Notes under the pieces: model-generated
The model's input: the letters and a program-made list of their open reading frames with translations, nothing else
Database searches by the model: none
What the model was told of the DNA's origin: nothing
Source of the DNA: an uncultured delta proteobacterium
GTDB taxonomy: Bacteria > Desulfobacterota > Binatia > UBA9968
DNA length: 64,000 nt
Assembly (NCBI GenBank): GCA_963745035.1
Contig: CAVUVW010000006.1
Coordinates: 1 to 64,000 of the forward strand
Direction of reading: 5' to 3'
Program-made: the position numbers and the translations under genes
Part shown: positions 28,261-44,010 of the stretch, in pieces
Position numbering within the stretch: the stretch's first letter is position 1
Layout: every line of letters starts with the position of its first letter

Positions 28261-31200
28261 TCAATGAAAATCCCGGCTGCGCGTGCCGGCAGGCTTGAGA
28301 TCCAGGCGCGGCTCCCAAAGCGTTTCGGCGACCAGGTGCACCACGCCGTCTTCGGCTTGCAGCTTGCCGCTGATGCCGAGAAAGCCCGTGGTTTTGGCCA
28401 GCACCGGGTAGCGCTGGAAAACGCTCTCCCACACGACGACGTTGACGAAACCGGTTTCGTCTTCGAGTGTCATGAATACGACTCCGCCCGCCGTGCCCGG
28501 CCGCTGCCGGCAGATCACCAACCCCGCATAACGAACTTTGGCGCCGTCTTGCATCGACGCCACCGTCCGCGCATCAGGCAAGTCCTGACGCACCAGGCCG
28601 GCGCGCAGCGGTGCCAGCGGATGGCGCCTCGTGCTGTGCGACGTCCGGCGATAGTCCCAACCGACTTCTTCGAAGTCGGTGAGCGCGGCGAATGCCGGCG
28701 GCGCCGCGCGCGCCGGCAGCGACAGGGGTTCTTTTTGCGCGCGCGCCAGGCGGCGCACATCCCAAAGCGCCGCGCGCCGGTCAACGCGCAGGCTCTCGAA
28801 GGCCCCCGCCTCCGCCAGCGCGCCGAGAGCCCCTTCATCCAAGCCCGTGCGGCGGGCGAAATCCTCGAGCGACGCGAACGGCGCCCATTCACGCGCACGC
28901 GCGATCTTCTTCCAATCTTTTTCACCGAAGCCTTTGACGTAGCGCAATCCCATGCGCACGGCGAACCGCTCCGCGCTCTCCGCGCACGGCTCCAGCGTGC
29001 AATCCCAATCACTGGTCTGCATGTCGACGCTGCGCATGACTATGCGATGACGCTTGGCGTCTTCGACGATGGTCGCCGGCGAGTAAAAACCCATCGGCTG
29101 AGCGTTCAACAGCGCGCAGGTGAACTCCGCTGGATAGTGGCATTTGAGCCAAGCTGTCGCGTAAGCGATGAGCGCGAAGCTCGCCGCGTGGCTTTCCGGA
29201 AAGCCGTACTCGCCGAAGCCGCGGATTTGCTCGAAGACCCGCTCGGCGAATTCCACAGCGATGCCTTTGGTCCGCATGCGCGTGATCAGCCGTTCACGGT
29301 GGCGCTCCATCCTGCCGGTGCGGTGCCATGCCGCCATGTCGCGGCGAAGCTGGTCAGCCTCGCCGGGCGTGTAATCCGCCACTACCATCGCAAGGCGCAT
29401 CACTTGCTCCTGGAACAGCGGCACGCCGAGGGTTCTTTCGAGCACGGGCTTCAACAAATCATGGGGATAATCCACTTTTTCTTTGCCCTGGCGACGGCGC
29501 AAATACGGGTGCACCATGCCACCGGTGATCGGCCCGGGGCGGACGATGCTGATCTCGATCACCAGATCGTAGAAGTTTCGCGGCTTAAGCCGCGGCAGCA
29601 TCGCCATCTGGGCACGGCTCTCGATCTGAAACACGCCGATCGTGTCGCTTTTGCAGATCATATCGTAAGTGGCTTCATCGTCACCGGGAATCGTTGCCAT
29701 GGAAAGATCGATGCCGCGCTGCTCGCGCAGGAGCTTGAAGCAAAGATCGAGCTGGGTAAGCCCGCCTAGGCCGAGCAAATCGACTTTGAACAGGCCGAGA
29801 TCTTCGACGTCGTTTTTATCCCATTGGATGACCGTGCGCTCTTCCATGGTCGCGTTTTCGATGGGAACCAGCTCGGGAATCGGTTCATGGCCGAGCAAAA
29901 AGCCGCCCGGATGGATCGATAGATGACGCGGAAAATCGAGGATCTCATTGGTGAGCTGGAGTAAATGCTCATGCAGGCCGCGGGAAGCATTGAGACCGAT
30001 TTGTTCGAGCATTTGCGGGCGGACGTTTTCGTAGGACGAAAGAAATTTGGCGGCACGATCGAGAGCAGTCTCCGACAAGCCTAAAGCTTTGCCGATATCG
30101 CGCAGCGCCGAACGCGCGCGGTAGCGCACCACATTGGCCACCAGCGCGGCGCGGTCGCGGCCGTATTTCTGATAAACGTGCTGGATGACTTCCTCGCGCC
30201 GGTCATGCTCGATATCGAGATCGATATCCGGCGGCTCGGCGCGCTCTTTCGAGATAAAACGCTCGAACAAACCTCCGATGAGTTTTGGATTAACGGCCGT
30301 GATGCCCAAGCAGTAGCAAACAACGGAGTTCGCCGCGGAACCGCGTCCCTGGCAGAGAATCGCGTTGGCATGGCAAAACTCGACGATCTCTCGCATGGTG
30401 AGAAAATATCCGGGGTAGTCGAGCGATTCGATGATCTCGAGCTCTTTTTCGATCTGCGCGGCGATGGAATCGGGAATCCCGTCAGGGTAGCGCCGCCGCG
30501 CGCCGTCGAAAGTCTGCTGGCGCAGCCATTCCATCGAGCTCATGCCGTTGGGCAACTGTTCCGACGGATAACGATAGCGGATCTCGCTCAATGAAAAATT
30601 GCAACGCTCGGCGATTTCCAAAGTCCGCCCGACGGCGGCCGGGTCGTCGGCGAAAAGTTGGGCGAACGCATAGGGCGGCTTGAGCCCGTATTCGGCGTTT
30701 GGCTTCAGCTTTCGCCCGCAGGAGGCGACCGGAATACCGTAGCGTATCGCCGTCAAGACATCCTGCAGGCGCCGGCGCGCCGGGTGGTGATAAAGGATTT
30801 CATTGACTGCCGCGATTGGGAAACCAAAGCGCTTAGCGCGCTCGCGCAGCCGCGCTTCGTCGATGATTTCATCTTCGCACCGGTGCCGGACGATCCTCCC
30901 GTAAAACCGATCGCCAAACGCATCGCGAAGGTCGCCGACGATTTGATCCGGATGCATTGCATATCTGGCTGATCCGTTTTCGCCTTCCTGTCCGTCATTC
31001 CCGTGCAAACGGGAATCCGGGTTCGTTGTTCTTGATCCAAAAGCACCCGCCCCGACTTCCGTGTTCGCGGGAGTGACGAACCCTACTTCCCCACCCCACA
31101 GTGCAATCAGCCCCGCCGCATGCGTGCAAACTTCCCCCCACGTGACGACGCTCTCGCCTTTCTCCGAGCGGAGCCGTCCTTTAGTCAATAGCCGGCAGAG

Positions 31201-31464
31201 ATTAGCATAACCGCCGCGATCTTGGCTCAACAGCACAATCGTCGAACCATCGTCGATCGTGACCTGCGATCCAATGATAATTTTCATGCCGAGCTCACGT
31301 GCCTTAATATGCGCGCGCACGACGCCGTAAACTCCGTCGCGGTCCGTCAGCGCGATCGCCGGCAAGCCCAAGCGATGGGCTTCCTCGACTAACTCGTCGG
31401 GATGGCTGGCGCCTTCGAGAAAGGAGAAATTGCTCTTACACCAGAGCGGAACGTAAGAAAACAT
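28261..31464 (-). CDS. dnaE2: Error-prone DNA polymerase DnaE2 (ImuC)
   Basis: [15 protein letters not shown] domain, [35 protein letters not shown]-terminal SRDFH signature. Confidence 0.96.
30994..31077. repeat. REP-like palindromic element inserted in frame within dnaE2
   Basis: GTCATTCCCGTGCAAACGGGAATCC...TTCGCGGGAGTGAC; same family as 54759-54836. Confidence 0.7.
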
Positions 31465-31532
31465 GAAAATAATAGAACCGACCACGAAAATAACAAGGAA
31501 TTGGATGCGTGACTGGCGAAGGGTAACCGAGA

Positions 31533-31599
31533 AGCTAACGTTAAGAGGGCATGATGCGGTTTATCTCGCTCGACAGTGTGGCGTGCGCGCGACTTAGAC
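31533..31599 (-). repeat. Degenerate attC (distal end of array 2)
   Basis: + strand AGCTAAC...CTTAGAC (R'' mutated); 67 bp. Confidence 0.45.
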
Positions 31600-31614
31600 A
31601 AACAGCGCTGCAGG

Positions 31615-31890
31615 GGCAATGAGTTCCACTCCATTCCTTGGACGCGTTGGACGATAGTTTACAGCCGTCAATGGCAAAGGTCTCTTTGCGATCAGCCCGA
31701 GGCATCAGCATAGATCAATACATCACGAAACACTGCGGCGATTTTTCTGGTTACTTATGGGTACAAAGTCAGCGATCATGGTGAGTGTCGTACGACTTGT
31801 ATCGCACCATCGAGTAGAGATGATCTCCGTTTGAGGGATGTGCCTTGCGATTGCAACGTCGTTGCCGCAGCGAAATATAACCTAAAATGA
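31615..31890 (-). pseudogene. IS1182-family transposase remnant
   Basis: Translatable fragments MIADFV...IAAVFRDV...KETFAIDGCKLSSNASKEWSGT. Confidence 0.6.
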
Positions 31891-31901
31891 CTTTTCTACA
31901 C

Positions 31902-31985
31902 CCTCAGCGTGCCGGTTAAGCGCCGCACGCTACCGCATTTGCCTTGGTACTCTATCCATCACGGTCCACCGCAACCGGATTAGGT
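31902..31985 (-). repeat. Degenerate attC after the DUF1772 gene
   Basis: Inner dyad CCGGTT-AAGCG...CCGC-AACCGG; R'' is ACCTAAT, overlapping the stop codon. Confidence 0.5.
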
Positions 31986-32420
31986 CCAAACCAAAAGCCA
32001 GACATACAACCCTGTGGCACCCATGCTCAACAGCGTGCGCACCGCATGAAGACTACCCCATCGCTTCAGCAGCGCCCGCGTTTCCGCCGAGCCGAGTTCG
32101 AGATCCGTGGCGAGGAGCCGGTGATTCGTCGGCATGATTACGATAAAGGTAAAGGGCACGACCGCCCCGATCAGTACCGCCGCCACGAGCCACCCAGCGC
32201 TACCGCCCGTAAACCAGACAGCCATACCGGCGATAGAGCTTACTACTGCCAGAGGAGCTTGCATCCACGTGGCGCGCCGGTAACTCGGCGCCCACTGCAA
32301 TGCGGCGACACGCGTTTCAAGGAGCATGCGCGCCGGATGCTCGGCAACGTTGATGTACAGGGCAGCACCCGCGAACAACGACGCACAAATGACTGCCAAG
32401 AACTCGAACGCTTCAGACAC
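31980..32420 (-). CDS. DUF1772 / anthrone oxygenase-like membrane protein (gene cassette)
   Basis: LFAGAALYINVAEHPAR, PFTFIVIMPTNHRL, WGSLHAVRT. Confidence 0.8.
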   Translation of the reverse strand: MSEAFEFLAVICASLFAGAALYINVAEHPARMLLETRVAALQWAPSYRRATWMQAPLAVVSSIAGMAVWFTGGSAGWLVAAVLIGAVVPFTFIVIMPTNHRLLATDLELGSAETRALLKRWGSLHAVRTLLSMGATGLYVWLLVWT

Positions 32421-32488
32421 CGCTGTGTCTCCGTCGGGACCTAATGTTTGAAAACGAGGCGACTGTAATGGATCACCGGGACTATGGA

Positions 32489-32572
32489 GCCTAAAAGGTC
32501 ATTCTCGGGCCGAGCACACGAAAGAGCCGAAGATCGAAAAGGCGACCCCGGCTCGGCTCGCCGCCGTTGGCT
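32489..32572 (-). repeat. Possible degenerate attC after the amidohydrolase gene
   Basis: + strand GCCTAAA...GCCGAGC...GCTCGGC...GTTGGCT. Confidence 0.35.
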
Positions 32573-32620
32573 AACTCCATGGCGCTAATCCTATGGTGAC
32601 GAAGGTGATATGAAGATCTC

Positions 32621-33856
32621 TCAGCGGACCGGCTGCGTGCGATCCACGGCCGCGCCGCGCAAGATGACCATAGAGATGCGTCGCGTGTTGGTGATGTCGT
32701 CCAGCGGGTTTGCGTCGAGCACGATGAAGTCCGCGCTCTTGCCGGCTTGCAATGTGCCCGTGTCGGCGAGCTGCAGGAATTCGGCTGAATTACGCGTCGC
32801 CGCTACGATCACCTGCATCGGCGTCATCCCAGCGCTCACCATGTCCAACATCTCTTCGTGCGGCCCCCACGGCCGGTTGCCGTCGGTGCCGAGCGTGATG
32901 CGCACGCCCGCCGCGTTCAGTTTCGCCAGATTGCGCGCCTGAATCCCGAAGAGGGCCTGCGCCTTTGGCCGGTCCGTGTTGGCCGCTTCGAGCTTCTTCA
33001 ACTCATCGGCCGGAAGGCCCGCCCGCAGCCAGCTTAGATCCACCTTCACGCCGCGATCCGGCAGGTTCGGCGTGAGCACCAGATTCGGCCGCTGCTTGAA
33101 CATGGCCACCAGTTCGTCGTCGATGTCCTTGTCGCGAATGCCGTGCGCGAACGCGTCGAGTCCGGCACGGATGAGGCCCTTCGCATCCTCGAGCTCGAAG
33201 ATATGCGCCGACACCCGCAGTCCTCGCTTGTGCGCATCGGCGATAATGGCGCTATAGATTTCCGGGGTCATCTTCTGATACTTGCCGTCCCTTGCATCGA
33301 CCCAGATCTTGACGATGTCGACCTTGTTCGCCGCCAACTCCTCCACCGCCTTGCGCCCCTCCGCCGCGCTCTTGACCCAGTAGGGCACGGTGGTGCGCCC
33401 CGGCTCGGGCATCGTGATGCCGCGCCCTGCGCTACGAAACCGCGCGACGCCGGGAATCGTCTCGTTGCGCATATCGAGCAGTCCATAACCGTCGGTGCCC
33501 ATGCTCAGCGCGGCACTCACGCCGTAGTAGGCGCGCATTTTTAAGTCCTGTATCAGCGCTTCGCGGGTCTCGCTGAGATGGACGTGAGTGTCGATGATCA
33601 TCGGCATCACGGTCTTGCCGGCGAGGTTCACGCGCGCGGCGCCGGCGGGCACGCGGACGTCGGCGGCCGCGCCGGCCTGGGCGATCTTGGCGCCGTCCAC
33701 GATCAATGTCGCCTTCTCAATCACCCGTCCGTCCCCCACGATCAATCGCGCGCCTTCGTACGCCGTGACGGACCGTTCGGAGGTCGGAACCGCGCATCCG
33801 CCAAGGAAACCAAGAGCAACGATTGCCGCGACTACAACTACATTCACTCGGTGCAT
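32621..33856 (-). CDS. Amidohydrolase-family lipoprotein (gene cassette)
   Basis: Lipobox LGGC; PMIIDTHVH, LGTDG, GKSADFIVLDANPLDDI; GGAGG RBS just after the attC GTTAGAA. Confidence 0.85.
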   Translation of the reverse strand: MHRVNVVVVAAIVALGFLGGCAVPTSERSVTAYEGARLIVGDGRVIEKATLIVDGAKIAQAGAAADVRVPAGAARVNLAGKTVMPMIIDTHVHLSETREALIQDLKMRAYYGVSAALSMGTDGYGLLDMRNETIPGVARFRSAGRGITMPEPGRTTVPYWVKSAAEGRKAVEELAANKVDIVKIWVDARDGKYQKMTPEIYSAIIADAHKRGLRVSAHIFELEDAKGLIRAGLDAFAHGIRDKDIDDELVAMFKQRPNLVLTPNLPDRGVKVDLSWLRAGLPADELKKLEAANTDRPKAQALFGIQARNLAKLNAAGVRITLGTDGNRPWGPHEEMLDMVSAGMTPMQVIVAATRNSAEFLQLADTGTLQAGKSADFIVLDANPLDDITNTRRISMVILRGAAVDRTQPVR

Positions 33857-33879
33857 GGGAACCTCCTCCATAAATATGT

Positions 33880-33939
33880 TTCTAACGCCTGAACTAACCC
33901 GAGCCGCGGAGCGGTGTCGGCTTGAAAGAATTGTTAGAC
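33880..33939 (-). repeat. attC site (60 bp)
   Basis: Minus strand GTCTAAC...GTTAGAA with internal dyad AGCCG/CGGCT. Confidence 0.75.
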
Positions 33940-33969
33940 AACAACTGTTCACCTCCTGTATCGGACATT

Positions 33970-34055
33970 GCATAACGCTATGCCGCTGAGCCGCTGTTAC
34001 ATTCGAAATCACCCGTCATGGACTCTTGCCGTCGGCTCCAGCGGCGTTGTTAGAC
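33970..34055 (-). repeat. attC site (86 bp)
   Basis: Minus strand GTCTAAC...GTTATGC; inner GCCGCTG-AGCCG/CGGCTC-CAGCGGC dyad; R'' flank CCGTCTAAC is complementary to this cassette's start GTTAGACGG. Confidence 0.85.
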
Positions 34056-34075
34056 GGTTTACCCAAACGCGTAAG

Positions 34076-34585
34076 CTATGAAGCCGCCATAACTTCCCCA
34101 CAATTCTTGCAAGTCCGAAATTCCCTATTTTCGAAGAACCGCTGATAAGCCTTAGAAACAGGATCGTCTCGATAGTCTTTCACGATGAACGTTTCCTCAT
34201 GGAGCAAAGCATCACACTTCTGGCAAAACCAATGGAAACGATCGATTTCGCCTTCATGCCGCTTGCGCTCCAGCACGAAAGTGAAGGTGTCGGGCGCACG
34301 ACGGGGTGAGTGTGGTACGCCGGCTGGAATGCGAATGACCGATCCTTCGGGAATGGCAGCAATCTCTTCTCGACCTGACGCCGTCCGATAATGCAGGCGC
34401 ATCTCTCCCCTAATCATGTATATGACTTCATCGCTTGGGTTCGTGTGAAACTCGGAGCGGTACTCCCGTCCTCGAGCGACAAAAGCGACGGACTCAGACT
34501 CCTGCCACTGGACGCCGACCGCCTTGCCGCTCTCGGTGAGCTGCCGATATTGATCCGCTAGGTTAACGATTGAGATCAGAGACAT
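34076..34585 (-). CDS. 3-hydroxyanthranilate 3,4-dioxygenase-like cupin (gene cassette)
   Basis: RSEFHTNPSDE, PAGVPHSPRR, rubredoxin-like WFCQKC and RTCKNCG. Confidence 0.8.
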   Translation of the reverse strand: MSLISIVNLADQYRQLTESGKAVGVQWQESESVAFVARGREYRSEFHTNPSDEVIYMIRGEMRLHYRTASGREEIAAIPEGSVIRIPAGVPHSPRRAPDTFTFVLERKRHEGEIDRFHWFCQKCDALLHEETFIVKDYRDDPVSKAYQRFFENREFRTCKNCGEVMAAS

Positions 34586-34635
34586 AAGATACCTCCATTC
34601 TAAGGTGAGACCGTAGGCGTCTACGACGAAATGCC

Positions 34636-34695
34636 GTCTAACGTTTTGGGTGAGAGGCGCGGTCCGCCGCGTCGGTCTCAACCCAATGGTTAGAC
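34636..34695 (-). repeat. attC site (60 bp)
   Basis: GTCTAAC-GTTTTGGGTGAGA...TCTCAACCCAATG-GTTAGAC palindrome. Confidence 0.88.
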
Positions 34696-34763
34696 TCGCA
34701 TTGCATTACCCCGGAAGAGTGAGCAATGTGCATACGACCTCCTCGTGTCTTCACATCGAACAG

Positions 34764-35513
34764 TCACTTCCGCGGAGTGCGATTTTCTGGCGCTACGTGG
34801 ACGCCTCGCCAGCCAGAGTCGTTGATTGCGCGCTGCACTAACCCCGAGGCCTTGGCCTCTTCGATGAACTCGCTGATGTAGGCAAGCCTCCCGGGCTGCC
34901 CCTTCGGGACGGCCATCGCTGTAAAGTTCGCTCCAAAACAGTCCTCCAGCACCCGCGAGCCGGACAATCTGGTGGAGAACTCTAGAAGCGCTGGACGGGT
35001 CGATGCCCACGCGTCCACATCTTCGGTACGCAGCAGGTCGAAAGCAATGTCGGGAGTCTCCGCGCTGATCAGTTCGGCATGTTTCCGTATGCGGTTCAGA
35101 CACAACGTCGAGGCGTGGTTGCGTACAACCGCGATACGGGCGTCGGGGCAGTCGGCATCGGCGACGTTTTGAATTGAGGAGTCGACCGCCACCAAATAGG
35201 TAAAATCAAATTGAAGAACCGCGGGTGAGAAATCTATCTCGGAAGTCTGAGATTCATCCATCGCTCCAAACCCCACATCACACGCGCCGGCCTTGAGGCC
35301 TTCCATCGCCCTAGGAGGAGTTGGATATTCGACCGGCAAGAACTCAACCCCGATCCGCGCTGCTAGCGCGCGAGCGAGTTCGATCGTCCACCCGCGCAAC
35401 TCGCCGGTTGTCGGATCCTTCGCATATTGCGGTGGATACAACGCGACCCGGACTATGCCGGCCCGCACGAGATCCGCGATTCTCGGGTCGGGCACCTGTT
35501 GAACATCGGTCAC
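34764..35513 (-). CDS. Transporter substrate-binding domain protein (gene cassette)
   Basis: TGELRGWTIELARALAARIG, FIEEAKASGLVQRAI. Confidence 0.8.
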   Translation of the reverse strand: MTDVQQVPDPRIADLVRAGIVRVALYPPQYAKDPTTGELRGWTIELARALAARIGVEFLPVEYPTPPRAMEGLKAGACDVGFGAMDESQTSEIDFSPAVLQFDFTYLVAVDSSIQNVADADCPDARIAVVRNHASTLCLNRIRKHAELISAETPDIAFDLLRTEDVDAWASTRPALLEFSTRLSGSRVLEDCFGANFTAMAVPKGQPGRLAYISEFIEEAKASGLVQRAINDSGWRGVHVAPENRTPRK

Positions 35514-35552
35514 AACACCCTCGTTTCCGCGTTCGTACTCACTCCTGCTAGC

Positions 35553-35610
35553 GTCTAACTATTAAGTGAGCTGCCATACGCACCGACAATTACTGGTCGG
35601 CTTATCCCAG
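35553..35610 (-). other. attI-like site 2 (head of array 2)
   Basis: Minus strand GGGATAAGC...TCACTTAATA/GTTAGAC; 16 bp identical to attI-1; no matching R'' hairpin upstream. Confidence 0.7.
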
Positions 35611-35810
35611 CGACTGCTCGGACAACAAAAGGTCAAATCGCTAACAATATCCATCCGCTAACATTACGTTGTCAACAATAAGTCTTCCGCCAAAAGCCGA
35701 CCGGGACAGCGGCCCTATTTCCTCAACGATCGGCGGCTTATCTCCGCCATCGAGATTCTCTTCTATAGCCGGCAGGACTGTTGACGCCTCTACCGACCTA
35801 CCCTCCTCGG

Positions 35811-36090
35811 TTATCCGACAAACCGTAGCGATTGCTTATTAGGGAACGCTTTCGGCAATTTATCTTCTCGTTTCCGGTCGAACCGCGCCTGAAGATCGAG
35901 CCAGTACCGCTCGGACATGCCGAAGTAGTGCGCGAGGCGATGCGCGATGTCGGCGGTGATCGGGCGTTGGCCCTCGACGATCTCGTAGATGCGGCGGACC
36001 GGCACGCCGATGTCCCTTGCGAGATGCCAGACGCTGATGCCGCGCGGGAGCGAGAAACTCTTCCAACAAGATTCTGCCGGGATGTATCAT
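35811..36090 (-). CDS. higA: HigA-family antitoxin (frameshifted), no adjacent toxin
   Basis: [12 protein letters not shown]...[40 protein letters not shown]. Confidence 0.8.
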
Positions 36091-36644: not shown

Positions 36645-38254
36645 TTACTCAATCGCTCCCTGCCAAAACCACCTTCTTCTCACCCGGTCGTAATACAGCC
36701 AGAGGAGATCGCCGGCGCGGGTTTCGGCGTAATAGTATTCGCGCTGAATCTCGCGATTCCACCAGCCGCCGGAAAAAACATACGGGCCGGTGAGTTTGTC
36801 GATGCTGCCGTATTTGGGGCCGAGCATGAGCCAGCCGTCTTCGTGCGAGTGATAAGGCCCGCCGTGGAGGCGCCGCGGCTTGGCAAAGACCCGGCGCACT
36901 AACGTATTCGGAGTGGACTCGTTCAAGCCGTTCAAATCGTTCAACCGCTTGCGGAGCCGGCCCTGAGCCCTTCGACTTCGCTCAAGATAAACTCCGTCGA
37001 AGGGTTCAACACGTTTTTGGGGAGTTTGACGCGGCTCACGGGCTCCCAAACAAAGCGCGCTTCGGGAAGATGGCCGTCGATGAGTTTGGCCCAGACGACG
37101 GAGTGTTCGCCGAACTCGGCGCGCAGGCGGGCGAGTGCGCGGTTGGCCGCGTCGAGATCGCGGCTCGGCCCTTCGACTTGGTCACTCTGTTCGGCGAACA
37201 GGCGCAGCTGCTCGCTGGTGGCGGCGCAGGTTTCCGCGCCAAGCTCGATTTCGCTCACGCCCGCGGCCACTTGCAGCGACTCCAAACGCAGACGGATCAA
37301 ATCCAGGATCTGGCTGGCATCGAGAGTCGGAACCGCGGCGCGGAGCGACTCTCTGAGCCAGTCGCCATGGTCGATCAGCAAAGACAGCCGGATCGCCACC
37401 ACGGCTTGATGGCGCGCCGCCAGAGTCGCAAGCAGCGGATGCAACAATTGCTTGATGAGAAACAGCAGCCGCGTGCTGTTGTTTTCGGCATCGTCGAGAA
37501 TTTGTTTTTCCACGGCGGGCTCGTCGGGCGCCTGGGGTTCGAGCGGCGTCCAGAGATCGCCGGCGGCGAGGCGATGAAGCCGGTGCGCTTCCTTGCCGAA
37601 GCGCTCGCGCAATCCGCCCGGCGGAAGCGCGAGCAAGTCGCCGACGGTTTTGATGCCGAGCTGGAAAAGCGTGTCGCGAAATTTGGGGTCAATATGCAAA
37701 CGGTTAAGCGGAATCTTCCTCGCGGCGGCGTGCTCATCGGCGGGATTGAGAAAAACCGTAACGTTCTTTTTCGCCTTGGCCACGGCGTAGCTGCCAAAGC
37801 GCGTGAAGCCGACCGCGAGGCTCGCGGCAAATCCCTGAGCTCTGAGATCTCTGTGAATGGCGTAGGCCCATTTTTCCGCCGAGGCATAGAGGCGCCGCAA
37901 GCCGGCGCCGTTGAGCCAAAAGACGCCGGGCTCGTCCGCCGCAGGCTCGACTTCGGGCGTAAAGCTCATGAAGCGCTGGGTCAGTTCGCCCACGGCTTTT
38001 TTTATTTCCGCCGGCGGCACTGCGCCGGCGCGCAGCGCCGAAGCCAGAGAAAAGGCGGCGGCGTAGCGCAAGCCGGGCAACACGCCCTGCTGCCGGGCCT
38101 TTTCGTTGACCCAGAGAACCACTCCCTGCGGCTTGTCTTCAGCTACCACCGCCGCTGGATAAGCGCTCCACTCGGGATGGCGCCGCAGCAGGAGCTGAAG
38201 AGGAAAGGCCGGCAGATCAACACAGGCCAGCCGGCCCGGTGTAGAGCTTTTCAT
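36645..38254 (-). CDS. imuB: ImuB, inactive Y-family polymerase-like protein (frameshift within a repeat insertion)
   Basis: LACVDLPAFPLQLL, SFTPEVE, LGIKTVGDLLALP, LARLRAEFG; C-terminal GPYVFSGGWW...REYYYAE...LWLYYD. Confidence 0.88.
36921..37010. repeat. REP-like palindrome plus GTTCAA repeats inserted inside imuB
   Basis: CCCTTCGACTTCGCTCAAGATAAACTCCGTCGAAGGG and GTTCAAGCCGTTCAAATCGTTCAACC. Confidence 0.7.
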
Positions 38255-38813
38255 AATGCCATGTCGGGCCACGCCGTTTGTCCTTGAGCACGCGCAAAGC
38301 GCAGGCGAAGCGATTGTCTGCCGTCCGTTTCTTCTCGGCATGAACGCGCAGCGAAACCAACGAGCCCAAAGAAAATGCTGCGCTGCTTTTATCGGTGAGG
38401 CAAACCAAAGCGGCGTGATGGCGCTGCGCCAAACCGGTCAAGCGGGTCTGCAGCGGCATGGGAATATCGGCGGCGCCGAGATCGAGCACGACCAGGCCGA
38501 AGCCGCCGGAGCGCAAAAGTTTTTCGCCGGCGCGCGGGATGCTCTGGCGTTCATTGAGACGCACGACCACGAGCGCCGCCAGATCAACGCCGCAGCGCTC
38601 CGCATCGGGCGGATAGAAAGAAGTTTCCGAAGAAGTCACCCAGGCTACCGGCTCGCCACGCTTGTGGGCTTCGCGGACCAAGTCGAAAGCGATGGTCAGC
38701 GCCGCCGACCCGGTAGAGCTCGATATCTCCACCAGCCGCCCGGCGAGATTTCCGAGCACCCACGGCGTCGGTGAACCAGCGGGATGAAGTTTTTGCGCGG
38801 AAAATAAGATCAT
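38217..38813 (-). CDS. imuA: ImuA (RecA-like) protein
   Basis: GRLVEISS, FYPPDAERCGVDLAALVVV, LLRSGGFGLVVLDL; overlaps the imuB start. Confidence 0.85.
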   Translation of the reverse strand: MILFSAQKLHPAGSPTPWVLGNLAGRLVEISSSTGSAALTIAFDLVREAHKRGEPVAWVTSSETSFYPPDAERCGVDLAALVVVRLNERQSIPRAGEKLLRSGGFGLVVLDLGAADIPMPLQTRLTGLAQRHHAALVCLTDKSSAAFSLGSLVSLRVHAEKKRTADNRFACALRVLKDKRRGPTWHYEKLYTGPAGLC

Positions 38814-38944
38814 GGACAGGATCTCCGTGAACTGGACATGCGCGGAGAGCGCGATCGACAGCTTCAGGAGGGATTCCTTCAGCTACTGCCCGGCAAGTAT
38901 CGTCGTATTTGAAAGATGCAGAAACGAAGGTAAGAGGATCAATT

Positions 38945-39062
38945 ATCTAACGCCCGCGTGGACCGGCCCGCACGCGCTACCAAACGCCGCGCGCGCATAA
39001 TCTCTCCCGCACGCTCAGCGCGCTAAATTGTTCACGGTCTGCTCCAACGCGCGTAGAGGCGC
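38945..39062 (-). repeat. attC site, R'' degenerate (distal end of array 1)
   Basis: + strand ATCTAAC-GCCCGCGTGGA...TCCAACGCGCG-TAGAGGCGCT; the flank AGGCGCT matches this cassette's start GTTAGGCGCT. Confidence 0.6.
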
Positions 39063-39078
39063 TCAATCGAGTGGCCAT

Positions 39079-39456
39079 TCAATCAAGGAACTTCCACGAT
39101 GCCGCACCGTCGAGGTGCCGGATCCGCACTCCGGCAAGAGCAGAAGGCTCGAAGTTGACCGCGTTCACTGCAATGGTCGTGTTGCGGCGTTTCTTCCGAT
39201 ACGCATAGTGGGTGACGCAACCACATTTCTTGCATCGATAATAAACGCGAATCTTCCGGTTCCATGAATATTTCGATAGGCCGCCCTTGGGAGCTTCAAT
39301 TTTAACCGAACTCGCAGCGTAGTAAGCCCAGAGCGCGCCATAGCGGCGGCAGATCGAACAATTGCAGCTCGTTAAAGTGCGCGATAGCCGTCGAACGTAA
39401 ATCCGAATCGCGCCACAGTGACACGTGGCCGCAAGCGCTGCGTTGCGGTGATCCAT
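39079..39456 (-). CDS. GFA/CENP-V family protein (gene cassette)
   Basis: TCHCGAI, CNCSICRRYG, CKKCGC. Confidence 0.88.
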   Translation of the reverse strand: MDHRNAALAATCHCGAIRIYVRRLSRTLTSCNCSICRRYGALWAYYAASSVKIEAPKGGLSKYSWNRKIRVYYRCKKCGCVTHYAYRKKRRNTTIAVNAVNFEPSALAGVRIRHLDGAASWKFLD

Positions 39457-39459
39457 AGC

Positions 39460-39522
39460 GCCTAACCGGATTGAGCTCAGCCGCCGCGCTTTTCAGCGGT
39501 CGGCTGCAGCGGCTTGTTCGGC
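39460..39522 (-). repeat. attC site (63 bp)
   Basis: Minus strand GCCGAAC...GTTAGGC; dyad GCTCAGCCGCCGC/GCGGTCGGCTGCAGC. Confidence 0.85.
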
Positions 39523-39594
39523 CTGCCTTACCCCGTGGCATAGGTTGGAGTTGACTCACCGGGACCTTTTCATCCTCCAACATGACGCCCTTGA

Positions 39595-40473
39595 TCATGC
39601 GCGGGTCAATACGAAGTCGTAGTCCATGGTGTGGAACGGGCGATCCATCTGGCGGCCGTCAGGCGCCTTACCGGGCTGATGCCGCGGGAAGTCTGCGATC
39701 AGCCCGTCCCGTACCGAAAAGGCAGCGTCCCGGTCGAGGTACTCACTGCCGCGCACGCAGATTTGCGTCACCAGGGTGTCGTGGCCATCGGCCTCGATCA
39801 TGAAGTGAACGTGCGCCGGCCGCCAGCCCCCGTTCGAGGTATACTTGACCAGGTCGCCCATCCCCCCGTCATTCGGGACTGGATAGCCGATGGGGACGAC
39901 CGTCCAGAACGAATAGCGACCGTCCGGCTCGCTCTTCAATTGCCCCCGCGTCCGCATTCCGTCCTTGGCCAGGTCACCCTGCACGTCGTACAGTCCCCGC
40001 CCGTCCGATTGCCAGACGTTGATGGTCGCGTTTGGAACAGGCCGACGATCGATCGCGAGAATACGCCCCGAGACGTAGAGAGGCTCGCCCGCGACGTCTT
40101 CGGCGATGTCGGCGCCGTTCGCGAAAGAGGGTGCGTTCGGAAGGAAGAACGGTCCGAGCACGCCCGGCAGCGTCGCGCCTTCCGGCTTCGGTTGCGATAT
40201 CTGGATCACCAGGGTTTCGAGCCCGAGCATCTCGGCGAGCGCGAGGAATTCCTGCCTGCCGCCCTTGCAGTAACCGCCCAGCTGGACCAGATAGTTCATC
40301 GCGAAGAGGTACTCGTCGCCGGTCAGCCGCACGTCGCGCGCAAAGCCATGCAGATGCTTGATCAGGCTCAAGATGATCTCGCGCAGGCGGGGGCCCGTCG
40401 TAGCTTGGTAGCGGGTTAGCGCTTCCTTCGTGATCGCCTCTTCGGCAGCGGCATTTTTCCCTTCCGTAGTCAT
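39595..40473 (-). CDS. Intradiol ring-cleavage dioxygenase (hydroxyquinol/catechol 1,2-dioxygenase-like) within array 1
   Basis: VLGPFF, VWQSDGRGLYDVQ, YPVPNDG, WRPAHVHF. Confidence 0.88.
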   Translation of the reverse strand: MTTEGKNAAAEEAITKEALTRYQATTGPRLREIILSLIKHLHGFARDVRLTGDEYLFAMNYLVQLGGYCKGGRQEFLALAEMLGLETLVIQISQPKPEGATLPGVLGPFFLPNAPSFANGADIAEDVAGEPLYVSGRILAIDRRPVPNATINVWQSDGRGLYDVQGDLAKDGMRTRGQLKSEPDGRYSFWTVVPIGYPVPNDGGMGDLVKYTSNGGWRPAHVHFMIEADGHDTLVTQICVRGSEYLDRDAAFSVRDGLIADFPRHQPGKAPDGRQMDRPFHTMDYDFVLTRA

Positions 40474-40613
40474 GAACGTGTCCTCCGATTGTTGGTGACG
40501 GTTTTCAGGGCCGCTTCCACCTCACTCAACTCCTCGCCGTAAAAGTGGTTCTCAACGGCCGCCTAGTTCGGCATCTGGTTGTCTCCATACTTGCTTTCCG
40601 TGGCAGGTTTTCG

Positions 40614-40683
40614 GGCGAACGCTAGCGGTCACCGGACGGAGCGAGCAACGCGAGTCCCGATCCGGTGCACTGCATTGTTAGCC
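40614..40683 (-). repeat. attC site (70 bp)
   Basis: Minus strand GGCTAAC (contains the stop TAA)...GTTCGCC; dyad GCGGTCACCGGA/TCCGGTGCACTGC. Confidence 0.88.
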
Positions 40684-41250
40684 AGAGACGCCAAGCACCC
40701 CCAGGACCTCGTCCCAGTGGCTGCAGAACGCCACACCCACCGGGCAATCATCGATCTGTGTTCGCCCGTGTTGCAGCCAGACACGCCGCAATCCTTCCAG
40801 CCGTACGTCGCGGAGGTGTCGAACATCATCGTCGATAAGGACATGAGCGCCGATCTGGTGACACACCTGCTCCTTGCTGGAGTCGTGCGACGTTATGACC
40901 TCCCTGATGGAAAGCGCAAGACCCATTCGCTCGAGCCACTCTCGAGCGTAGGCAATGCGATGCAGCCGTCTGTTAGTAACGACGAACACATCTCCAATGA
41001 CTGTGAGGGCACGAAGCGCGTTTGCAGCGCCGGGGACTTCCGCTGCTGCCAGGGTGCTCTCACGTTCGTACACGTAGTCGTTCATTTCCTCATATGGACT
41101 TTTCCCAATGAGAGGCACGCAATCAGTGCGATTGCATTGCCACGGCTCTACGTCCCGGCCCACATGTGTCTTGATCCACTTCATCGCCTCGGCATTGGTA
41201 TTCGCAATCGTGCCGTCGTAATCTACCGCGATGATCAGTCTTGTACTCAT
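40678..41250 (-). CDS. HAD-superfamily 5'(3')-nucleotidase-like protein (gene cassette)
   Basis: IAVDYDGTIA, FVVTNR, VLIDDD; cassette start GTTAGCCAGA is complementary to end TCTGGCTAAC. Confidence 0.82.
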   Translation of the reverse strand: MSTRLIIAVDYDGTIANTNAEAMKWIKTHVGRDVEPWQCNRTDCVPLIGKSPYEEMNDYVYERESTLAAAEVPGAANALRALTVIGDVFVVTNRRLHRIAYAREWLERMGLALSIREVITSHDSSKEQVCHQIGAHVLIDDDVRHLRDVRLEGLRRVWLQHGRTQIDDCPVGVAFCSHWDEVLGVLGVSG

Positions 41251-41263
41251 CCAGGCCCTTTCT

Positions 41264-41353
41264 GGCTAACGTCGTGGTGAACGGCGGGCCGCAGCGACGG
41301 TCTTTGCGTTGGCACGGTGGTTCGCGGCCCGTCCGTTCCACCTAGAGTTAGAG
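41264..41353 (-). repeat. attC site (90 bp)
   Basis: Minus strand CTCTAAC...GTTAGCC; dyad GGTGAACGGCGGGCCGC/GCGGCCCGTCCGTTCCACC; 12-bp complementarity TTGCGCTCTAAC to the first-cassette start. Confidence 0.9.
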
Positions 41354-41363
41354 CGCAAAAGGC

Positions 41364-41852
41364 TCAATGCGCCTCCTTGGCGAGGCGGTCATCACGCTCG
41401 CGCAGCAGCCAGTAGACCACGCCGAGCACAAGGGTTGCTCCAGCCAGCGCCGCAATGGTGCTTGCGGCGGTGGCGCTGGAATCGAGAATGACGAACTTGC
41501 GACTCAACGCAATGAGCGCGATGAGCACCACGGTCTTGACCTGGATGATGCTCGAGCGCCGAAGAGCAACGCTAACAATCGAATGCTTGAATTCCATGGC
41601 GATGAGCAGCGTCATGATCATGCCAAAGAGCGCCTGAAAGACGTCATGTTCCAGTGGATCTATCGCGCCGCTAAGCAACAGCGGCACGATGCGGATGACC
41701 AGCTGCACGAGCGCTAGGGCGATGACCACTGAGATCACGAGACTCAGAACGATCGCAACAATCTGCTCGAAGCGCTCGTAAACGGACATGATCGGCCAAT
41801 GCTCACGTGTTTCCGCAAAGAACTTCCGCGGCGCGTGGCGTTTGTTGTCCAT
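41364..41852 (-). CDS. PsiE-like membrane protein (first cassette of array 1)
   Basis: YERFEQIV, LLIAMEFKHSI, VLIALIALSRKFVILD. Confidence 0.85.
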   Translation of the reverse strand: MDNKRHAPRKFFAETREHWPIMSVYERFEQIVAIVLSLVISVVIALALVQLVIRIVPLLLSGAIDPLEHDVFQALFGMIMTLLIAMEFKHSIVSVALRRSSIIQVKTVVLIALIALSRKFVILDSSATAASTIAALAGATLVLGVVYWLLRERDDRLAKEAH

Positions 41853-41876
41853 TTGTCGCTCCGTTCTTGCCTTGCG

Positions 41877-41935
41877 CTCTAACTATTAAGTGAACGAATT
41901 AGACTAACCTTGTGTTGGCCGCTTATTCCCAAAGC
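41877..41935 (-). other. attI-like site 1, downstream of intI
   Basis: Minus strand GGGAATAAGC...TCACTTAATA/GTTAGAG; begins the first cassette; no full-length attC hairpin. Confidence 0.75.
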
Positions 41936-42089
41936 ATGTTTCACTGAAAAATATCAAAATTACCAGCTTTATCGTCCACTTTTCTGTTGCAAGTCAAGGT
42001 TCTTATGATCAGCAATTGCGGCCAGTTTGACCGCCTATCACTCTATTGGCCCGCAGCCTATTCCGGAGACCACAGGGTAGTTCAAGTCT

Positions 42090-43168
42090 TTAGAGACGGT
42101 CTGCCGGGCTTCGAACGCCTCTACCGCCGCGATCAATACATGCGTATAAATCATGGTCGTGCTGACATCGCGGTGACCGAGCAACTCCTGCACCGTCCGG
42201 ATATCGTACCCATCCTCCAATAAATGCGTCGCGAAAGAGTGTCGTAAAGAATGACATGTGGCTGGTTTTGGTATCCCGGCATTGCGAACAGCCTCGCGCA
42301 CTGCTTTTTGTAGCACCGATTCATGGAGATGATGCCGGTACTGCAATCCGGTGTGGCGGTCAATGTAGTATCTTGTCGCAGGAAACACCCATTGCCATAC
42401 CCATTCTCGGTTAGCGTTTGGATATTTCCTATCCAGCGCGTTCGGCAACACAACTCGCCCTAAATTATTCTCAACATCATACTGGTGTTGTCGTTTGCCA
42501 TTGTTGAGATGCTTAGTGAGTGGTTCTTTCACAGCTGTAGGAAGCATCGTGTAACGGTCCTTGTCTCCCTTTCCAGCGCGTATAACGATTTGGTTTTGCG
42601 AAAAATCAATGTCTTTTACCCTGAGCCGGCAACATTCCATGAGCCGAAGGCCGGCGCCGTAAAGCAATGTCGCCATGATTTTTTCGGTTCCTGTAAGCTG
42701 ATTCAGTAGGCTTTGGATCTCCGCACGGGTCAATACGACCGGCAACCGTAGAGCTTTTTTCGCGCGTACTACGCCGTTCACATAACCGATCTCTTTTTCT
42801 AATACCTGGTGATAAAGAAACAGCAATGCGTTCAGGGCTTGGTTCTGCGTGGAACCGCTCACCTTTGATTCGGCTGCCAAATTAGAAAGGAAACGCGCTA
42901 TTTCCGGTTCCGCCATTTCTGCAGGGTGCCGTTTATTGTGGAAAAAGATGAACCGTCTGATCCAATGGACATAGCTGCCTTCAGTCTTGGGACTGTAGTG
43001 TCGGGTGCGGATTGCCCGGCGCACTTGATCGAGCAATTTCGGCTTCATCGCCGTGGCTATCGACCGAACGCCGGCTGCGGCGTTCAATCCACCGTCAATC
43101 ACCGCGAGCGTACGGGTTGGCTGCCTGGGTGCGTCAATGTTCATCATCCTAACCGCTCTCCTTGTCAT
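42090..43168 (-). CDS. intI: Integron integrase
   Basis: [34 protein letters not shown], IntI-specific insertion ([28 protein letters not shown]), [28 protein letters not shown]; one added base restores the canonical [15 protein letters not shown] end at 42090. Confidence 0.95.
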
Positions 43169-43264
43169 CCGCGTCTCGCAGCACCCCCTCTAGGGTTGAC
43201 GAGGAATGACGGAACGAAGCTTGGCACAACGCTGGATAAGCTTCCGCCCGTACTGCAGCGCAGT

Positions 43265-43350
43265 GTTCAAACCGTTCAAGAGTTCAAGGTTCAACGCTGG
43301 AGAAACAAAAACAGTCTAGAGAACTTTGAACTTTCAACCTTGAACTTTTT
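43265..43350. repeat. Inverted pair of GTTCAA tandem repeats between lexA and intI
   Basis: GTTCAAACCGTTCAAGAGTTCAAGGTTCAA...TTTGAACTTTCAACCTTGAAC. Confidence 0.65.
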
Positions 43351-43364
43351 AGTCCCCCGCCCAC

Positions 43365-43974
43365 TTAGAATTTTCTCAGCAATCCCACCACCCGCCCCAC
43401 GATGCGGAACTCCCCTTCGGAGACAGTGATCGGCGGGTACTTTTCGTTCTCCGCCTTGAGCGTGACGACGCCGTCTTTCTCGAAGAACCGCTTGAGCGTC
43501 GCCTCGCCCTCGATCACCGCGCACACGATCTCGCCGTTCTCCGCACTGCCCTGCTGCTTCACGATTACCCGGTCGCCGTCGAGGATACCGGCGCCGATCA
43601 TGCTGTCGCCTTTGACCTGCAGCGCGAACCTTTTTCCGCTGCCGATGTCGTCGGGAATGGTGATGGTGCCTTCGAAATTTTCTTCGTTTAGGAGCGGCTT
43701 GCCGGCGGCGATCCTGCCCAGAACCGGCAGCCTGGCGGGTCGGGCTAATGGCCGCTTGGCCCAAAGCGTTGACGATCTCGATGGCGCGCTTGCCGACGCG
43801 GCGGATATAGCCCTTTTTCTCCAAGGCCTTCAGATGATCGGAGACGCCGTTAGTCGAAGTGATCTTGAACTGCCTGCCGATCTCGTGCATCGACGGTGCG
43901 AAGCCCTTCTCGCGAATGGTTTTGAGCAGAAAATCGTAGATCGCTTTTTGCCGGGAGGTCAGCTCGGGAAGCAT
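43365..43974 (-). CDS. lexA: LexA repressor (frameshifted)
   Basis: [37 protein letters not shown] wHTH; GRIAAG cleavage site; KGDSM and EATLKR catalytic dyad. Confidence 0.93.
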
Positions 43975-43981
43975 GGTTCAC

Positions 43982-44010
43982 CATATACTGAAAATATTTT
44001 CAGTAGTCAA
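43982..44010 (-). promoter_or_regulatory. lexA promoter with perfect 20-bp palindrome (candidate SOS box)
   Basis: TTGACT-N17-TATATG; TACTGAAAATATTTTCAGTA (43986-44005) covers the spacer; ATG lies 7 nt after the -10. Confidence 0.8.

Follow-up and report, generated by a model that had tools for sequence, protein, structure and literature searches.

Integron platforms at two places within the lexA-imuA-imuB-dnaE2 mutagenesis unit of an uncultured bacterium

The 'inverted integrase' group consists of sedentary chromosomal integrons in which the integrase gene is co-oriented with the cassettes, as in Treponema denticola. Clusters of attC sites without an integrase are termed CALINs in the IntegronFinder literature. 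Some integron integrases are reportedly controlled by the SOS response, in which DNA damage leads to cleavage of LexA, and lexA-imuA-imuB-dnaE2 is a known mutagenesis cassette of bacteria. SOS-controlled integrases of class 1 and Vibrio integrons are treated in Cambray 2011 (PMC3108266); in the known cases, a CTG-N10-CAG-type LexA operator lies upstream of intI, as it does here, and overlaps a dedicated Pint beside attI, whereas at the present locus the box belongs to lexA itself and intI follows further down the unit. That paper uses none of the terms operon, imuA and dnaE, and a literature search for the present layout found no description of it.

The window, that is, the whole 64-kb stretch of DNA that was analyzed, carries two integrons embedded within a lexA-imuA-imuB-dnaE2 unit, and the arrangement is genuine. 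Read along the minus strand, the unit opens with a LexA operator, lexA, intI, attI and four cassette genes; imuA and imuB come next, followed by a four-helix-bundle gene and higA, by the remains of another, deleted intI and its attI, and by further cassettes up to dnaE2. Gene order and strand had been given in an earlier note on this DNA and are borne out by ORF calls and Pfam/NCBIfam profile matches. The arrays do interrupt the mutasome operon, as that note had claimed, with integron material behind lexA and again behind imuB/higA; it had overlooked the second intI remnant at ~35797-35763 and the out-of-frame state of lexA, intI, the imuB gene, the helix-bundle gene and higA. The host is an uncultured, soil-type bacterium. 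The first half of the unit is composed as follows.

43982..44010, minus strand: lexA promoter with the LexA operator, a 20-nt palindrome (43986-44005) between TTGACT (-35) and TATA (-10)
43365..43974, minus strand: lexA, its frame broken by one inserted base (+1) near 43731
43265..43350, minus strand: TTGAAC/GTTCAA inverted repeat cluster, read from the sequence
42038..43147, minus strand: intI-1, integron integrase (TIGR02249 at 445 bits, above the cut-off of 265)
41968..41997, minus strand: weak promoter-like site TTGACT-18-GATAAA, a possible Pc, between intI-1 and attI-1
41877..41892, minus strand: attI-1 core, crossover GTT at 41883-41881
41264..41882, minus strand: cassette 1, PsiE-family gene 41852..41364 (PF06146), attC 41353..41264
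40614..41263, minus strand: cassette 2, NT5C/HAD-type nucleotidase gene 41250..40678 (PF06941), attC 40683..40614 (41.2 bits)
39460..40613, minus strand: cassette 3, intradiol (catechol) dioxygenase gene 40473..39595 (PF00775, PF04444), attC 39522..39460 (60.9 bits)
38945..39459, minus strand: cassette 4, GFA-family gene 39456..39079 (PF04828), degenerate end site

The integrase intI-1 covers positions 1-301 of the 315 in the TIGR02249 profile, and XerC and XerD models score far under their own cut-offs on it. The last 14 positions are lost to a frameshift; against the intI 3′ ends of three relatives, a 1-nt deletion is placed near 42133, three codons past the catalytic-Tyr motif, and the canonical frame would end at 42090. 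The closest named match to the integrases of the genus comes from a 'Candidatus Binatia' genome. Both array heads carry an attI-like site with an identical 14-nt core ending in GTTAG, and similar cores are present in relatives; these are the two putative attI of the earlier note. The first cassette begins at the attI-1 core, its start being complementary to R″ of its own attC, and the starts of cassettes complement the inverse core found at their respective ends.

The attC sites, compared with the layout of imperfect palindromes in the order R″/L″...L′/R′, were found by a covariance model built in this analysis (model R2), which derives from this genus and therefore is not an independent detector. 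Six attC are present in the window, three per array, all on the operon strand and at 27.5-60.9 bits; two of the six were used in building neither model, and five fold as R-box/spacer/L-box hairpins. That of cassette 1 (32.3 bits, E 1.5e-5) is a seed of neither model, and its bottom strand gives an R-box/L-box hairpin fold with a z of -3.2. In the rest of the 64 kb, the only matches under E 0.06 are shadows on the reverse strand and a single doubtful site within imuB. The previously suggested cassette counts of four and about six are thus not reproduced by attC, while four cassette genes do stand in array 1. The terminus of cassette 4 retains only an R′-like GTTAGAT (38951..38945), with no attC model match and no attC-like fold at this end. 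The remainder of the unit, up to dnaE2, reads as follows.

38814..38944, minus strand: conserved leader separating imuA from the last attC
38217..38813, minus strand: imuA, RecA-like (PF00154, 31.9 bits)
36645..38341, minus strand: imuB (PF00817, 39.3 bits against a cut-off of 23.2)
36087..36582, minus strand: four-helix-bundle gene of the 23S rRNA IVP family (PF05635, TIGR02436)
35811..36090, minus strand: higA-like gene, with one extra base (+1, CC to CCC) near 36045
35763..35797, minus strand: intI-2 remnant, aligning to intI 3′ ends
35646..35675, minus strand: promoter-like site TTGACA-18-GATATT, a possible Pc, between the intI-2 remnant and attI-2
35553..35568, minus strand: attI-2 core, GTT at 35559-35557
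34636..35556, minus strand: array 2 cassette 1, SBP_bac_3 gene 35513..34764 (Pfam), attC 34695..34636
33970..34635, minus strand: array 2 cassette 2, 3-hydroxyanthranilate-dioxygenase-like cupin gene 34585..34076 (PF06052), attC 34055..33970
33880..33969, minus strand: array 2 cassette 3, gene-less, ~30 nt plus attC 33939..33880 (35.0 bits)
31465..33879, minus strand: stretch before dnaE2, with an amidohydrolase gene 33856..32621, an anthrone-oxygenase-like gene 32420..31980 (Pfam) and 516 nt of non-coding DNA
28261..31464, minus strand: dnaE2, error-prone polymerase, intact (NF004225 at 1357.6 bits, above the cut-off of 939; positions 4-1047 of 1047)

The imuA gene gives 38 bits with NF033429 ImuA, under the cut-off of 150, and is so named because of its position before imuB and its conservation in relatives, where the gene preceding imuB is 60-81% identical to it. 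ImuB is Y-family polymerase-like by PF00817, with its C-terminal part out of frame: alignment places ~65 extra bases in a TTGAAC-repeat linker between 37049 and 36941, leaving two overlapping ORFs in different frames, where relatives have single open frames, mostly of 534-575 aa. For the helix-bundle gene, alignment and translations reveal an A6 run against A5 in relatives, with the start codon out of frame. The putative higA at 35811..36090, so named in the earlier note and not from a tool result, has as its homologue in relatives the gene that follows imuB; four of these relatives make the extra base evident, and the ORF as it stands has no Pfam or NCBIfam match.

At the head of the second array, the 3′ end of an integrase is joined straight to the ribosome-binding site after higA. 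Three relatives (G015, G014, G006) have an intact intI at this place, starting 10-20 nt past the higA stop. The promoter-like site at 35675-35646 aligns with that at 41968..41997 and is the best minus-strand promoter match (10/12) of a class that is not significant, seven such sites being found against 5.5 expected from shuffles, without excess. The attC of the first cassette in this array scores 50.4 bits with a fold z of -4.5; that of the second (27.5 bits, E 2e-4) is not a seed. Between 31465 and 33879, the attC model gave no match at E up to 5. A separate DnaE1 is encoded on contig C5 of the genome.

The gene order is identical to that of the lexA-imuA-imuB-dnaE2 cassette, with autoregulated lexA first, and this cassette is kept as a compact contiguous operon in one genus genome (G008). 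Here, in contrast, integrase genes and cassette arrays split it, with ~4.3 kb (intI plus array) between lexA and imuA and ~5.2 kb between imuB and dnaE2, and the four-helix-bundle and higA-like genes are part of the backbone. The locus shares with 'inverted integrase' integrons an IntI of the integron-specific family, an attI-like site, attC-bounded cassette arrays, an array downstream of an intI on the cassette strand, and an intI phylogeny tracking the host; intI and all attC lie on one strand rather than in the classical divergent layout. It differs from those integrons in having its platform within an SOS mutagenesis operon or at the operon's end, in allowing two platforms per unit, and in an intI without a visible promoter region of its own. 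Array 2 resembles a CALIN in having attC without an adjoining intact intI, as do the arrays without intI at corresponding operon places in four relatives (G003, G019, G044, G018); unlike in CALINs, the lost integrase is traceable (a 3′ remnant in the window, fragments in G003) and the arrays are fixed in an operon. That true integrons are built into the lexA/imuAB/dnaE2 unit is supported.

A comparison across 31 genomes of the genus bears on whether integron and SOS genes were joined by mis-assembly, a reading in whose favor the record resembles a metagenome-assembled genome with 5.8% contamination. The search for lexA-intI adjacency proposed earlier found lexA followed by intI in six genus genomes (G000, G014, G005, G016, G010, G021) and as a remnant in G003. 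Five genus genomes (G014, G015, G006, G012, G017) and two of a sister genus have intI after imuB-higA, eight have the junction of last attC, leader and imuA, and eight have imuB and dnaE2 on one contig. Because identical junctions recur in independent assemblies, such a chimera is effectively refuted and we consider it extremely improbable; neither is the layout a one-off insertion, an outcome that would have undone the earlier reading. A fixed core order with variable cassettes, as had been predicted, is seen across the relatives. Of the eight genes in the cassette regions, only the GFA gene is closely matched at the locus of a relative, its cassette also preceding imuA in G044 (protein 96% identical); HAO and other GFA matches in relatives' loci are only 30-40% identical, whereas backbone genes are 60-90% identical. 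An attC survey of 42 loci, of which 32 belong to the genus, gave 127 matches; nine of these are reverse-strand shadows, and in the genus loci every distinct match lies on the operon strand.

The copy in the window is frame-disrupted in lexA (43731), intI-1 (42133), imuB (37049-36941), the helix-bundle gene (36570) and higA (36045), and intI-2 is deleted, so the unit as assembled is probably inactive; with five backbone genes out of frame, the window does not evidence a working system. In lexA, the extra base is evident against four relatives, and the TIGR00498 profile is spread over two frames, the first covering its positions 3-70 (62.6 bits) and the second 82-202 (127.5 bits, above the cut-off of 110.95); no other lexA was found in the genome. 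The disruptions reflect either decay or assembly error. If they are real mutations, the unit has truly been inactivated, for example after LexA loss made constitutive expression of integrase and mutasome costly, and for this we see an even chance. All five fall within ~4.1 kb of backbone genes and none in ~8.8 kb of cassette genes, imuA and dnaE2, although cassette frames were judged by full Pfam coverage only and not by comparison with relatives. The genome retains 52 open frames of at least 1000 aa and 967 of at least 500 aa, and is therefore not riddled with indels. The large deletion of intI-2 is impossible as a base-calling error, and the imuB change is a 65-nt composite rather than a homopolymer slip. 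However, three of the five disruptions each affect one base within a short run (AA, A5/A6, CC), as long-read errors usually do; the 7.4-Mb genome in 28 contigs suggests a long-read assembly, and conserved backbone genes could draw related-strain reads during polishing.

The palindromic operator reported earlier at lexA is confirmed as the only AT-rich CTG-N10-CAG within 28000-44400 and the sole match in the window to a LexA matrix, and all 13 lexA promoters examined in the genus carry the identical box and hexamers. The window and its relatives have one LexA box per unit, the relatives having been scanned with this matrix, which derives from orthologous lexA promoters and is over-specific; a looser CTG-N10-CAG scan covered the window and its genome. 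In the window, the box stands ~840 nt upstream of the intI start rather than directly before it, and no promoter-like site was found in the lexA-intI interval. There, the TTGAAC/GTTCAA cluster occupies the slot where relatives have the four-helix-bundle gene (lexA-IVP-intI); the repeat type is dispersed, the genome having 159 similar clusters with three or more TTGAAC-type units, a pattern outside which this cluster itself falls. In three units (G012 C48, L032, G005 C347), lexA has been lost through three different deletions, each sparing the boxed promoter directly before intI, which in G012 C48 leaves the box ~60 nt from the gene. In array genomes, moreover, intI-1 is preceded by the motif that stands before imuA in compact genomes. 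The idea that intI belongs to the lexA unit and has no separate operator thus gains from comparison (one box, no intervening promoter-like site, lexA-less variants), and comparison, including the tight spacing of intI behind higA in relatives, likewise speaks for a predicted SOS control that intI would share with this unit.

The window probably holds a degenerate copy of a lineage-fixed architecture, in which co-oriented chromosomal integrons were inserted, both behind lexA and behind imuB/higA, into a LexA-repressed unit lexA-(four-helix-bundle)-imuA-imuB-higA-dnaE2. In intact relatives, DNA damage would cause LexA to be cleaved and, as the one conserved operator suggests, the sole boxed promoter ahead of lexA would open. 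One transcript would then carry lexA and intI-1, so that the integrase would be made under damage only, and transcription would presumably continue into the co-oriented cassettes. The second integrase may be coupled to imuB-higA, from which it is spaced by 10-20 nt in relatives. Cassettes entering at attI push the old attI flank and imuA away from the promoter, as the shared leader shows: a ~190-nt leader precedes imuA in all eight array-bearing genomes and in none of the four compact genomes examined, and it is interpreted as the old right flank of attI-1.

Further down, imuAB and dnaE2 may be transcribed by read-through or from promoters of their own. The leader could contain imuA's own promoter, and together with the weak promoter-like sites by both attI it could uncouple the downstream genes from the lexA promoter. 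The suggestion that cassette number tunes expression finds no support here. Gaps of 25-36 kb precede dnaE2 in six genomes. The gene matches over its full length and is free of in-frame stops in G006, G015, G003 and G044, and it is disrupted in G014 and G019, so distance alone is no predictor of its state. Only part of these gaps carries attC matches, and in all six genomes full read-through is unlikely.

Integron modules may instead have been acquired by chance and kept by descent, with intI, imuA and dnaE2 on their own promoters and uncoupled. The leader, the sites adjoining both attI and the stop-free dnaE2 copies fit such neutral docking, as does an intI tree that largely tracks host families, as for sedentary, vertically inherited integrons; among 40 sampled class-level intI loci, 35 lie away from SOS genes, three have the order imuA-imuB-dnaE2-intI and two more imuB-intI. 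Related families have the former order too (G027 and G029), with 18 co-oriented attC in G029 and none in G027, and intI is co-oriented with a downstream array in 26 of the 28 class loci having attC matches. We nevertheless consider chance docking rather unlikely, since integron and SOS genes are associated at three different positions (behind lexA, behind imuB/higA and behind dnaE2), as seen in families f1, f2, f13 and f18, and related forms in other phyla (L068, L084) have a LexA box followed by intI and then lexA, or by intI and then dnaE2. The three lexA deletions that spared the boxed promoter also speak against it, as does the close start of intI past higA, to which L160 and L163 add, by coordinates only, an apparent intI start no more than ~20 nt from where dnaE2 stops.

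The lineage-fixed architecture hints that gene shuffling and error-prone repair may lie under one damage switch. A stronger proposal, which we regard as tentative and rather doubtful, is that in this bacterial class the integron has become a domesticated part of the SOS mutagenesis operon, one LexA-gated unit comprising integrase, cassettes and the ImuA-ImuB-DnaE2 mutasome. Recurrence at three positions in several families would then reflect selection for coupling, and a hard-wired 'evolvability operon' would, under DNA damage only, jointly switch on gene shuffling, point mutagenesis and the expression of stored genes.

An integron is built into the SOS mutagenesis unit of the window, and the same layout is found across the lineage in its relatives. 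The gene order that the earlier note had read within this unit is borne out by Pfam and NCBIfam matches, and all of the relevant genes are on the minus strand:

43974 to 43365, minus strand, lexA (Pfam/NCBIfam), with one extra base near 43731
minus strand, intI-1, the integrase gene after lexA (TIGR02249, 445 bits against a curated cut-off of 265), with one base lost near 42133, three codons past the Tyr motif, and the last 14 profile positions replaced
minus strand, array 1, genes for PsiE, an NT5C/HAD nucleotidase, an intradiol dioxygenase and a GFA-family protein (Pfam/NCBIfam)
minus strand, imuA, RecA-like (ImuA model 38 bits, under the cut-off of 150)
minus strand, imuB (IMS domain), with about 65 extra bases in its TTGAAC-repeat linker and the conserved C-terminal part shifted to another frame
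36582 to 36087, minus strand, four-helix-bundle gene (23S rRNA IVP family, TIGR02436), with an A6 run against A5 in relatives
minus strand, small higA-like gene after the four-helix-bundle gene, without family match, with CCC against CC in relatives
minus strand, array 2 region, genes for a solute-binding protein, a 3-HAO cupin, an amidohydrolase and an anthrone-oxygenase-like protein
minus strand, dnaE2 (NF004225, 1357.6 bits against a cut-off of 939)

The small gene after the four-helix-bundle gene is one that we take to be higA. Domain coverage is full and single-frame in the cassette genes, imuA and dnaE2, and the genome has 52 open frames of at least 1000 aa and is therefore not generally frameshift-ridden; the window's own copy of the unit is probably either inactive or mis-polished, that is, subject to real decay or to consensus error. 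Four-helix-bundle genes occupy two backbone positions, behind lexA and behind imuB, in many relatives (loci L112, L022, L123 and others), and also stand in the operon backbone of the compact genome G008, where no array separates lexA from imuAB. A XerC/XerD-type tyrosine recombinase gene at 20065-20871, weakly matched by the IntI model (91.9 and 50.4 bits), is outside the integron. An Rfam search of 27500-44500 gave no match except one chance one at E 0.6.

Cassettes in the window start with GTTAG-like bases complementary to the inverse core at the end of the same cassette, and this complementarity is a signature of attC × attI insertion. A covariance model of attC was built from ten sites of similar length, used instead of the six sites of unequal length whose 3′-ends were misaligned by MAFFT, and was rebuilt on the 69 matches given by the window and its relatives. 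Of two other approaches, energy-ranked constrained folding did not separate real sites from the GC-rich background and was dropped; a rule-based scan for R-box and L-stem placed three true sites at the top, with many low-scoring matches besides, and was used for seed choice only. Run unfiltered over the whole 64 kb, the rebuilt model finds six sites, on the minus strand only:

41353-41264, minus strand, attC, 32.3 bits, in neither training set
40683-40614, minus strand, attC, 41.2 bits
39522-39460, minus strand, attC, 60.9 bits
34695-34636, minus strand, attC, 50.4 bits
34055-33970, minus strand, attC, 27.5 bits, in neither training set
33939-33880, minus strand, attC, 35.0 bits

Nothing else in the 64 kb falls under E 0.06 save reverse-strand shadows and one doubtful match inside imuB, and the model finds no site 3′ of either the amidohydrolase or the anthrone-oxygenase-like gene. 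On bottom-strand folding, five of the six form hairpins of R-box, spacer and L-box; the site 3′ of the GFA gene is degenerate. The integron arrays described in the earlier note are therefore upheld, but its count of four plus about six cassettes is not, the supported attC sites being three plus three. Although trained on the window's own genus, the model also detects arrays beside integrases of Acidobacteriota, Rhodocyclaceae and Methylomirabilis contigs. The window's own genome has at least nine further attC-like sites on eight other contigs (150 of 6950 candidates scored); those away from any full integrase (C21:134040 and 138962, C10:16665 and 17190, and on five other contigs) may be integrase-less arrays.

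The 14-nt core heading array 1 is found again at the head of array 2. Upstream of this second core, the higA stop codon and a ribosome-binding site are fused to about 35 nt alignable with intI 3′-ends, and at the corresponding place three relatives (genomes G015, G014 and G006) have an intact intI 10-20 nt past the higA stop; the second integrase of the window, intI-2, has thus been lost by internal deletion. At 31545-31530, some 75 nt ahead of dnaE2, a CTTAAC-GTTAGC junction looks like the attI core minus one base; it could be a chance resemblance or what is left of a third attI-like site.

Among named integrases the closest, at 82% identity, comes from a 'Candidatus Binatia' contig. Of the 31 genomes in the genus, 15 give an intI match with E no higher than 1e-40, and nine give one above the cut-off. 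The layouts, counted from match coordinates and tblastn on the relatives' loci, are the following, G005 being an unpublished genome:

lexA then intI, 6 genomes (G000, G014, G005, G016, G010, G021), with intI fragments in G003
imuB, (helix bundle), higA, then intI, 5 genomes (G014, G015, G006, G012, G017)
lexA directly followed by imuAB, 8 genomes (G008, G012, G043, G018, G001, G020, G023, G024)
imuB and dnaE2 on one contig, 8 cases, compact only in G008 (0.3 kb), 5.2 kb apart in the window and 25-36 kb apart in six others

The lexA-intI adjacency that the earlier note proposed to look for in related genomes occurs in six of this genus, and G014 holds both integrases intact within one unit. The attC scan of relatives gave 127 matches in 42 loci (32 from the genus), nine of the matches being reverse-strand shadows, and every distinct match in the genus loci is on the operon strand. 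Arrays without integrase occupy the same operon places in G003, G019, G044 and G018, and among the eight cassette-region genes of the window only GFA recurs closely (96% in G044, also directly before imuA); the core order is fixed and the cassettes are variable, a pattern that the note had named as one that would support its reading. The long gaps before dnaE2 contain attC matches in only part of their length. That imuA-imuB-higA might itself be a giant cassette was rejected, as no attC follows higA in G019, G003, G018 or G044. Upstream of the true dnaE2, in or beside arrays, there are short duplicated pieces of its 5′-end (L023 3498-3334 in G015, L117 11272-11463 in G003, L031 1139-1071 in unpublished G005), which point to rearrangements at the border between array and dnaE2.

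How the first array came to separate lexA from imuA is suggested by its right flank. A leader of about 190 nt, from the R′ of the last attC to the imuA start, is common to all eight array-bearing genomes and absent from all four compact ones examined, and a short motif found just before imuA in compact genomes is found just before intI-1 in array genomes. Cassettes enter an integron at attI, displacing its old right flank, and the shared leader and shifted motif fit these mechanics, the leader and imuA being the old attI flank pushed away. Sequence comparison therefore favours a scenario in which an intI-attI module was inserted once, in an ancestor, between lexA and imuA, and cassette turnover came afterwards. 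No conserved sequence of this kind was found before dnaE2.

A 20-nt CTG-N10-CAG palindrome just before lexA lies between a TTGACT -35 and a TATA -10 element, in an arrangement identical in all 13 lexA promoters examined in the genus. With a matrix from these 13 operators a single site is detected in the window, and at a lenient threshold the relatives show none ahead of intI-2, imuA or dnaE2; a looser CTG-N10-CAG search of the window and its own genome gave no other AT-rich site in 28000-44400. No promoter-like site was found between lexA and intI, and three variants have lost lexA while retaining its boxed promoter before intI:

G012 contig C48, intI starting about 60 nt past the LexA box
locus L032, lexA down to its last ~15 codons, boxed promoter before intI
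G005 contig C347, lexA degraded, boxed promoter before intI

The single box, the missing promoter-like site and these variants support LexA control of intI. The earlier note, which placed intI under the lexA operator, was right that no separate operator is seen, and shared control through the lexA promoter is plausible by comparison and rather probable. Coupling of the whole unit is another matter: the downstream genes could be driven from the leader of imuA or from the weak promoter-like sites next to each attI, and in four genomes a dnaE2 lying behind 25-36 kb is matched over its full length and free of stops, both points counting against full coupling. Terminator and promoter scans gave no excess over shuffles and are weak pointers only. 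Read-through to dnaE2 is unsupported, and so is the proposed tuning by cassette number. Elsewhere in the genome, a near-perfect LexA box at C14:938491 (L176 2989-3008), identical in its 16-nt CTG-N10-CAG core and differing in one end base, lies 27 nt before a 142-aa ORF; the ORFs beside it have no Pfam family, so that the box is no help in validating the regulon, which seems to comprise two sites only at the stringency used. Tandem TTGAAC-type units with a period of about 10 (43350-43265, 36944-36921, 36638-36606, 36146-36114) flank four-helix-bundle genes, precede many relatives' lexA promoters and also lie within the imuB coding linker; 159 clusters in the 7.4-Mb genome rule them out as a locus-specific operator and mark them as a dispersed REP-like repeat.

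Beyond the genus, the order imuA-imuB-dnaE2-intI is found in a sister family (G027 and G029), with 18 co-oriented attC downstream of intI in G029 and none in G027. The G029 integrase is split by a 1.45-kb insertion (L134 11269-12727). Both loci (L133, L134) lack lexA before imuA and have a TTCG-N7-TTCG direct repeat after TTGACT in the imuA promoter region, possibly a different operator type. In a class-wide sample, 112 of 401 genomes have intI, and among 40 loci, picked non-randomly for long contigs and family spread, SOS genes adjoin it in five (imuB-intI in two, imuB-dnaE2-intI in three) and not in the other 35. The array lies downstream of intI on the same strand in 26 of the 28 class loci with attC matches; co-orientation is thus the class norm, making operon embedding possible. 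A FastTree of 55 intI rows (six were left out for matches under 270 aa) mostly parallels host families, and within the window's family separates an after-lexA clade, including the window, from an after-imuB clade, with the after-lexA copy of G014 as sole exception. It supersedes a 25-row tree in which position had seemed independent of phylogeny; IQ-TREE support for the window's clade in that tree is 100/100. Among the best 80 integrase loci from other lineages, four have an SOS gene near intI. Two of other lineages (L068, L084) and one within the genus (L018, G006 contig C109) are classical divergent integrons with a canonical LexA box before intI, followed by lexA or dnaE2, the G006 lexA being a second copy, 36-40% identical; such integrons, from three phyla, represent a further mode of connecting the integrase with SOS genes.

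Of the processes by which DNA damage induces genetic novelty in bacteria, integrons and SOS mutagenesis are the two best known; to our knowledge, they have so far been linked through separate LexA boxes only. Full-text literature on integrons with mutasome genes or LexA operons gave no description of the present layout, and no paper on integrons in Binatia was found. The accessible portions of two papers lack the terms 'operon', 'imuA' and 'dnaE' (PMC3108266) and 'error-prone' and 'translesion' (PMC8876359). According to the former, chromosomal integrons of soil have for the most part lost control by LexA (PMC3108266), a statement on which an integrase that is itself a gene of the lexA/imuAB/dnaE2 unit bears. 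The natural variants, namely a compact operon, one or two embedded integrons, an integron after dnaE2, and lexA deleted with its promoter kept, can be compared with one another, and allow asking whether there is selection for SOS control of the integrase, by what means cassettes are expressed without a divergent Pc, and what effect long arrays have on the genes behind them.
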